Shown: piece after piece, positions 12,712 to 13,630 of the stretch
Layout: each line of letters opens with the position of its first letter
How positions within the stretch are numbered: position 1 is the first letter of the stretch
Made by a program: the position numbers and the translations under genes
Origin: Escherichia coli
GTDB taxonomy: Bacteria; Pseudomonadota; Gammaproteobacteria; Enterobacterales; Enterobacteriaceae
Length of the DNA stretch: 64,000 nt
Reading direction: 5' to 3' (one strand)
Assembly: GCF_003334765.1 (NCBI RefSeq)
Contig: NZ_QOWT01000022.1
Notes under the pieces: generated by a model
The model's database searches: none
The model's input: only the letters and a program-made list of their open reading frames with translations
Told to the model about the DNA's origin: nothing

Positions 12712-12915
12712 TTAAGCAGACAAAGCATCAACAGTCAGAGCAGCCAGGTTAATCATTACCTTTTCACGTTTTTTGTCTTTACGAAGACGATGACGAGGTA
12801 GTCGGCCATCAGCCAACATGTCGTTAATCGTATCAATAGAAAGGCCAGTCAGTTCGCTATAACGTTCGATTGTGACATGTGGTGTATTCAGAGTAATTGA
12901 AATGTTAGGTGTCAT
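12712..12915 (-). CDS. Apl/Cox-like small HTH protein (excisionase and switch regulator)
   Basis: 67-aa HTH-like protein ([21 protein letters not shown]) divergent from the CI-like repressor, as in 186. Confidence 0.5.
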
Positions 12916-13060
12916 AAGGCAACATTCCTTCTAGATATGGCTTGTGGCGAGCCGTTGTTTGTCGTGATTAGTAGTGAAGGCTCCAAAAGAACACTTCTGG
13001 TTCAACTTTAAGATCGCTTTTGGAATCTGTCAACGAATTTTGGATTTCTTTGGAGGACTT

Positions 13061-13630
13061 GTGGATTTCAATAGCGGCGGTAAGAAAGCCATAGAACGTT
13101 TAGTTGAAGCATATGGGTTCGGTACCCGTCAGGCTCTATGTGATCATTTAGGTGTTTCTAAGAGCACCATGGCAACGCGCTATATGCGTGATATTTTTCC
13201 AGCAGATTGGGTAATCCAGTGCGCCCTTGAAACGGGCACCTCGCTTAATTGGCTAACAACAGGGCATGGTTCAAAGCAAGCATCAGCAAATACAAATACT
13301 ATAGAAGTAGAAAAATATTTATTGTCTGATGGAGCATTGCAGAAAGACGGTTTTTATATTTTTGATAAGGGATTTCTACCCTCTACGTTTAAAAAACCTT
13401 TTGTCATCACAGATAACAATTCTGAATTTATTTGTGATAAAGAATTTGATGATATACGTGATGGTAAATGGGTAATAAGTATTGATGGCGAAATAACGAT
13501 CCGTGACATTACTCGTTTACCCGGTGGAAGAATCTTCGTCGAGGGTGGAAACAGAGCCTTCGAATGCAAGATAGAAGACATTGAAATAATTGGTAAAATT
13601 ATAAGTTTAACAGTCAAGTATGTTAAATAG
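13061..13630 (+). CDS. CI-like immunity repressor (186 CI family); start probably GTG at 13061 (longest ORF from 12974)
   Basis: GGKKAIERLVEAYGFGTRQALCDHLGVSKSTMATRYMRD HTH region; GGAGG 4-5 nt upstream of the GTG; about 189 aa. Confidence 0.7.
   Translation: MDFNSGGKKAIERLVEAYGFGTRQALCDHLGVSKSTMATRYMRDIFPADWVIQCALETGTSLNWLTTGHGSKQASANTNTIEVEKYLLSDGALQKDGFYIFDKGFLPSTFKKPFVITDNNSEFICDKEFDDIRDGKWVISIDGEITIRDITRLPGGRIFVEGGNRAFECKIEDIEIIGKIISLTVKYVK

Follow-up and report, generated by a model that had tools for sequence, protein, structure and literature searches.

A 186-like immunity region in an Escherichia coli prophage and the probable translation start of its CI repressor

Introduction

Two questions are raised together by a divergent gene pair in a prophage of Escherichia coli, i.e., which type of genetic switch the pair belongs to and where translation of its repressor begins. 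The pair lies in a stretch of 64,000 nucleotides from contig NZ_QOWT01000022.1, referred to here as the window, in which a 186-type immunity region occupies positions 12138-13630. The original prediction, made from the sequence alone, described an Apl/Cox-like and a CI-like gene reading away from each other with CII downstream of apl, and all three genes are present in that arrangement. It also held that the longest open reading frame (ORF) of the repressor adds about 29 unlikely residues to a protein that starts at an internal GTG. The reading favored by the evidence below, with a probability of about 0.88, is that the region is the lysis–lysogeny switch of a 186-like (Peduoviridae) prophage beside rcdA, with cI read from GTG 13061, and that it works by analogy with 186.

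Genome setting and state of the prophage

The 1.8-kb switch region is 100% identical to prophage DNA of several complete E. coli genomes, and of 5426 complete E. coli genomes, 577 contain it at a coverage of at least 80%. The RefSeq copy of the locus is a P2/186-like prophage flanked by ybjL and rcdA, in which the genes are annotated, from the int end, as phage integrase, YdcA family protein, phage repressor protein CI, hypothetical protein (the 67-aa gene), phage regulatory CII family protein, Fil family protein, DUF5347 protein, DUF2732 protein, TraR/DksA regulator, DNA adenine methylase, replication endonuclease and DinI-like protein. No isolated phage with this cI/operator region was found in the INPHARED collection. 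The closest isolated-phage matches to the cI region reach at most 18% coverage at about 74% identity, and several Klebsiella and Escherichia phages match the apl-cII-fil segment at 87-92% identity. This immunity type is common among E. coli prophages and absent from the isolated phages of the collection searched.

Although the immunity region is intact, the window prophage as a whole is defective. It lacks about 7.06 kb that this prophage contains in other E. coli records (compare L095, NZ_CP148585.1 2900-26500), a segment holding lysC, lysB, the lysozyme, holin, X, head completion and small terminase genes, the capsid, scaffold and large terminase genes, and the portal gene in its 5′ part. 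The deletion junction lies at window 2131-2138, where an 8-bp overlap links a truncated tail gene to what is left of the portal gene, its 3′ part. Because these head, terminase and lysis genes (about 7 kb) are missing, the switch is unable to yield productive lytic growth here. The switch genes themselves are all intact and identical to those of complete prophages in many E. coli genomes.

Between the portal gene and the tum/A region, three adjoining plus-strand ORFs of 333, 359 and 227 aa (4152-6902) match the PADLOC models Hp1, Hp2 and Hp3 over their full length (1e-239, 3e-248 and 2e-157, respectively). By these matches they are a candidate three-gene anti-phage system in a cargo slot, and in a second E. 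coli prophage, whose immunity region is identical, this slot is occupied by a DUF262 gene.

On the other side of the repressor, two further genes complete the predicted lysogenic operon:

13646-13837, plus strand: YdcA-like ORF, 63 aa (NCBIfam NF007463, 5.3e-34; RefSeq "YdcA family protein")
14026-15102, plus strand: tyrosine integrase, last gene of the lysogenic operon, adjoining rcdA (tyrosine recombinase families; RefSeq "phage integrase" in a related locus)

The YdcA-like protein has a hydrophobic N-terminus, and its gene sits between cI and int, whereas cI and int abut in 186. The content of this slot varies among related loci (L004-L013), where the genes present include one for a KAP-family NTPase (443-504 aa) and one whose product faintly matches HEPN_Swt1, among others. 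In the interval between int and rcdA, at window 15111-15144 and 15176-15193, two copies of CTAACTTATTGTTTT lie 19 bp apart, and two copies of TTATCTA lie 11 bp apart; these repeats may belong to the attachment region, as arm-type sites for the integrase and as sites for the excisionase.

The repressor and its start codon

The longest plus-strand ORF runs from 12974 to 13630 (218 codons). An in-frame GTG at 13061-13063 is its codon 30, and the stretch upstream, called here the extension, is exactly 29 codons long. The GGAGG named in the original prediction is also present.

13061-13630, plus strand: cI immunity repressor gene, 189 aa, GTG start (RefSeq, Pfam, identity to 186 CI, PDB 2FJR, conserved start)
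13052-13056, plus strand: Shine–Dalgarno sequence GGAGG, 4 nt 5′ of the GTG (read from the sequence)

The protein has the two-domain structure of a 186-type CI. Pfam reports an N-terminal HTH domain, Phage_CI_repr (4.8e-31, residues 39-101 of the long ORF), and an oligomerization domain, Phage_CI_C (7e-29). The protein is 33% identical to 186 CI over 175 aa and matches the crystallized 186 CI (PDB 2FJR, 1.5e-31; 2FKD, 1.1e-14), with short-form residues 10-183 aligning on residues 10-184 of 2FJR; this was the alignment proposed as a check in the original prediction, and it agrees with the short form. The statement that the conserved HTH begins right after the GTG is approximately correct, the Pfam domain beginning 9 residues past it. 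In NCBIfam, no model matched CI or CII. Among CI relatives (P0009-P0100), the HTH domain is almost identical despite saturated synonymous divergence, whereas identity in the C-terminal domains is only about 35-50%, a pattern that suggests domain shuffling or fast evolution of the oligomerization domain.

The start codon was compared across 11 aligned loci and then, with IMG/VR loci added, across 88 loci comprising 49 distinct sequences. In the 11 loci, the codon homologous to 13061 is GTG in 4, TTG in 5 and ATG in 2. Among the 49 distinct sequences, it is ATG (33), GTG (10) or TTG (6) and nothing else, i.e., a permitted start in 88 of 88 loci, and it is ATG even in the same-immunity loci L078, L082 and L010. 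A GGAGG, GGAGT or GGAAT is retained 5′ of the start in relatives, including every one of the 11 loci; the 4-nt spacing between GGAGG and GTG in the window is shorter than optimal. RefSeq places the start at the same position, in that WP_001346406.1 ("phage repressor protein CI", 570 nt, 189 aa) maps exactly to 13061-13630. The GTG start at 13061 is thus already the public RefSeq gene model and is not new. On this comparative evidence, cI starts at GTG 13061 and encodes a 189-aa repressor, which confirms that the RefSeq model is right. The gene identities, the layout and the position of the translation start can be regarded as established, with the evidence for the start being comparative.

The 29-codon extension

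12974-13060, plus strand: open, non-coding 29-codon extension, predicted to be cI leader and promoter/operator DNA (codon-phase variability, stops in relatives, no Shine–Dalgarno sequence)

The longest ORF also opens with a GTG (12974), and the strongest case for a longer repressor comes from its relatives. Proteins found by searching with the long ORF fall into three length classes, i.e., about 186-197 aa (the majority), about 212-218 aa, and about 290-318 aa, the last of which carries an extra N-terminal domain (PF20432 or PF18024). Proteins of the 212-218-aa class align across all 29 extension residues with high similarity. The translated extension is about 80-90% identical among these relatives, as against only about 35-50% for their C-terminal domains, and the frame stays open in most same-immunity relatives. 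Models of 215-218 aa have been annotated by PGAP and JGI for several of them. The rival reading is therefore that the repressor is the full 218-aa product from GTG 12974 with a functional N-terminus (MKAPKEHF.FNFKIAFGICQ...).

The variability of the three codon positions among 23 distinct same-immunity sequences argues strongly against this reading. The variable sites at codon positions 1, 2 and 3 are as follows:

Extension (12974-13060): 17/29, 11/29, 7/29
cI (13061-13240): 17/60, 6/60, 54/60
apl: 15/67, 7/67, 52/67

Both cI and apl show the strong third-position bias of codon-level purifying selection, whereas the third position is the least variable phase inside the extension and is far less variable there than in cI (Fisher p = 7.6e-10). 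The extension, which lacks third-position bias, is thus conserved as DNA rather than as protein, and its apparent protein conservation is, on the sequence comparison, DNA-level conservation of the promoter/operator region. In addition, the same-immunity loci L010 and L082, which retain ATG as the short-form start, have in-frame stops 3-4 codons upstream of it, and in L007-type loci, which likewise retain the ATG, the frame is open for just 11 codons upstream of the start. No Shine–Dalgarno-like sequence precedes GTG 12974 (TGATTAGTA GTG). A 218-aa product would also leave just 58 bp between the two divergent genes and would place the predicted lytic promoter inside coding sequence, and neither 186 CI nor its crystal structure has such an extension. 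Taken together, these observations make the 218-aa form very unlikely. A start at the in-frame TTG 13040, giving 196 aa, is extremely improbable; translation can begin at TTG, and the nr entry P0002 opens accordingly with MDFFGGLVDF..., but most same-immunity relatives (L004-L012) have TTA at this codon, which hence is not conserved as a start, has no Shine–Dalgarno sequence, and lies within the stretch that lacks a coding signature.

The long-form database entries that the original prediction had named as possible counterevidence do exist (215-218 aa), but the extension is kept as DNA and they do not overturn the short form. These entries come mostly from loci with TTG as the conserved start (e.g., P0107, P0082 and P0076), with GTG there in P0015 and P0020. 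In the loci concerned, the gene caller went upstream to the GTG homologous to 12974, which has no Shine–Dalgarno sequence; the 215-218-aa models are probably over-extensions into conserved promoter/operator DNA. TTG is the conserved start at loci L004, L005, L006, L008 and L009 (each with cI at 1501), and there PGAP calls proteins of 215-217 aa. A hairpin in the leader that would hide the Shine–Dalgarno sequence (inverted repeat 12977-12991 / 13046-13060) was also considered and rejected, the RNA fold of 12932-13090 being no more stable than those of shuffled sequences (z = 0.45).

Predicted promoters and candidate operators

We infer the promoter and operator positions, and all of the regulatory interactions discussed below, from position and from analogy with characterized phages.

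13005-13033, minus strand: pR-like lytic promoter facing apl, TTGACA (13033-13028), 17 nt, TAAAGT (13010-13005) (consensus scan)
12897-12925, plus strand: pL-like candidate, TTGAAA (12897-12902), 17 nt, CAACAT (12920-12925) (alignment with 186 pL)
12982-13065, both strands: TCCAAAA-type repeat cluster, candidate CI operator elements (position); exact copies at 12982-12988 (plus), 13018-13024 (minus) and 13038-13044 (minus), degenerate copies at 13048-13054 (minus) and 13059-13065 (minus)

The pR-like site is the only sigma-70-like site in 12600-13200, with 10 of 12 positions matching. It falls inside the 29-codon extension, and both of its hexamers are nearly invariant in the 23 same-immunity sequences. 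The pL candidate has its −35 element within the first apl codons and its −10 element 4 nt past the apl ATG, the same geometry as in 186, and it aligns with the annotated 186 pL (TTGCGA, 17 nt, CATGAT, then TCC). It is conserved in relatives; its −10 element is weak and the candidate falls below the threshold of the consensus scan. The DNA alignment of the switch region with 186 is good only around pL and the apl start, and the rest is too divergent for the pR and operator coordinates of 186 to be transferred. The predicted transcription starts, at about 12998 (minus) and 12932 (plus), are about 65 bp apart, as compared with 62 bp between the pR and pL starts in 186. In P2-like phages generally, the separation is 40-60 bp, the repressor operators lie over the lytic promoter, and the Apl/Cox sites lie between the promoters or over the lysogenic promoter (PMC7498355).

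Three of the nine exact TCCAAAA copies in the 64-kb window fall within 63 bp (12982-13044), and the minus-strand copies are spaced by about 20, 10 and 11 bp, over and upstream of the predicted pR. The cluster is a candidate set of CI operator elements, assigned to CI by position only. A palindrome scan of 12600-13700 revealed nothing recurrent over pR that would resemble the inverted-repeat operators of 186, and no convincing FL/FR-like distal CI sites, which are about 300 bp away in 186, were found. A search of 12916-13010 and the int-proximal att arm for Apl-type 10-11 bp direct repeats, and for shared k-mers, gave only chance-level matches (TATCTA; GTCGTG/GTAGTG).

The apl/cox-like, cII and fil genes

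12712-12915, minus strand: apl/cox-like gene, 67 aa, first gene of the lytic operon (PHROG 575, position, third-position bias)
12138-12647, minus strand: cII, lysogeny-establishment activator, 169 aa (identity to 186 CII, PHROG 101, RefSeq)
12620-12647, minus strand: candidate CII binding site ATGTTTG-N14-CAAACAT in the first 28 nt of cII, pE-like (match to the 186 site)
11834-12130, minus strand: fil-like gene downstream of cII (RefSeq "phage filamentation protein Fil family protein" in an identical locus)

The 67-aa protein matches PHROG 575, "Cox-like excisionase and repressor", over its full length (1e-29), which together with its position and strand marks it as a Cox/Apl-family HTH protein encoded by the first lytic gene, divergent from cI. 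Its Pfam matches to HTH_17 and Phage_Cox are weak, the latter below threshold. The similarity to 186 Apl is marginal, with a weak match to Apl residues 8-27, and a PDB search returned designed repeat proteins only.

CII, encoded directly downstream of apl, is 69% identical to 186 CII over all 169 aa and matches PHROG 101 (7.7e-57); RefSeq names it "phage regulatory CII family protein", and its relatives carry PF06892 (Phage_CP76). The half-sites and spacing of ATGTTTG-N14-CAAACAT equal those of the annotated 186 CII site (23435-23462), which activates pE. As a sequence, then, the cII start contains the 7-bp inverted repeat, with its halves two helical turns apart; since the candidate site lies inside conserved coding sequence, its conservation is weak and not independent evidence. 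Relatives of the fil-like gene carry the Pfam domain Phage_186_Fil.

The probable SOS operon

6998-7490, minus strand: LexA-box-controlled operon (CTGT-N8-ACAG match, Tum similarity)
7473-7488: core of the LexA box TACTGTAAATACAAACAGTG, downstream of the replication gene and overlapping a promoter-like sequence
7242-7430, minus strand: 62-aa ORF following the LexA box (PHROG 698, a family whose function is not known)
6998-7231, minus strand: 77-aa ORF similar to DinI and the C-terminal part of Tum (41% identity to 186 Tum residues 71-145; PHROG 189)

The summed length of the two ORFs is close to that of 186 Tum (146 aa), with homology to Tum confined to the 77-aa ORF; the 62-aa ORF showed no similarity to the N-terminal (antirepressor) half of 186 Tum. 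This arrangement may represent a split or alternative antirepressor. SOS control of the operon is likely, judging by the LexA box.

Comparison with 186, P2 and WPhi

The annotated 186 record reads int, cI / pR/pL / apl, cII, fil, dhr, ... A, then p95-tum, and the window has the same order, with int and cI on one side, apl, cII, fil and the replication genes through A on the other, and the SOS operon last. The likeness extends to CI, which has the same two Pfam domains and a similar length (189 aa here vs. 192 aa), to CII with its 69% identity and identical half-sites, to the distance between the apl and cI starts (146 bp here vs. 130 bp in 186), to the spacing of the predicted convergent promoters given above, and to the LexA box upstream of a DinI/Tum-like gene. 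The differences are also clear. The Apl-like protein shows barely any similarity to Apl and is 20 aa shorter (67 aa vs. 87 aa), the cI start codon is GTG, and the inverted-repeat operators of the ATTCAC-N5-GTGAAT type are absent, with the TCCAAAA-type repeat cluster in their place. The equivalent of Tum consists of two ORFs (62 and 77 aa), the first of which is unrelated to the Tum N-terminus, and integration adjoins rcdA, whereas 186 uses the tRNA-Ile gene ileY. Because CI is only 33% identical to 186 CI, the region is heteroimmune; it is an uncharacterized member of the well-known 186-type switch family.

P2 has a small single-domain C repressor of about 99 aa, no cII, no fil and no SOS operon, and it is not SOS-inducible. 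P2 and WPhi share with the present region the divergent lysogenic and lytic operons and a Cox-family HTH protein encoded by the first lytic gene; in those phages the promoters lie face to face and the protein also serves as excisionase (PMC7498355, PMC1904263), both of which are predicted here. The original prediction had drawn the distinction from P2 from the layout as a whole; the presence of CI, CII and Fil agrees with it, but a repressor gene divergent from cox/apl is found in P2 and 186 alike. The same common arrangement, the Cox-family membership of the small gene, and the loss of head, lysis and terminase genes from the window prophage are what could be said for a P2-type C/Cox switch or for a decayed remnant with no working switch. 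Yet the 189-aa repressor has a 186-type C-terminal domain, and this two-domain CI, cII, fil and the LexA-controlled DinI/Tum-like gene, which are the 186-like markers of the region, are all absent from P2. Moreover, the switch genes are the intact ones shared with complete prophages, and cI and apl are under codon-level purifying selection. A P2-type switch or a remnant is thus highly improbable.

The differences from 186 could also be read as functional, i.e., CI would recognize same-orientation TTTTGGA-type repeats spaced by about one and two helical turns rather than inverted repeats, and in place of a fused Tum, the SOS antirepressor would be the separate 62-aa protein (PHROG 698), whose gene lies upstream of a DinI-like gene that stands alone. 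This departure from the 186 scheme is considered unlikely, as is its weaker variant, in which a minor form of CI would carry an N-terminal extension translated from the conserved open leader.

Proposed mechanism

By analogy with 186, the region with cI read from GTG 13061 would operate as follows. CI (189 aa, with an N-terminal HTH and an oligomerizing C-terminal domain) would bind operators over the predicted pR and silence the operon of apl, cII, fil and the replication genes. Silencing of pR would relieve convergent interference on the face-to-face pL, which would then transcribe cI, the YdcA-like gene and int. With the predicted starts about 65 bp apart, the 29 "extra codons" would be the cI leader, running through pR and the operators. 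The Apl/Cox-like protein would repress pL, and perhaps pR, and act as excisionase, and CII would activate a pE-like promoter at the apl-cII junction, through which lysogeny would be established. The LexA-controlled operon with the DinI/Tum-like gene probably couples induction to the SOS response.

Implications

The significance of these results beyond annotation quality is small. They provide a worked example of how the amino-acid conservation of an upstream extension misleads when the DNA is conserved for regulation. For the family, the region is a possible natural heteroimmune comparison for the well-studied 186 switch.
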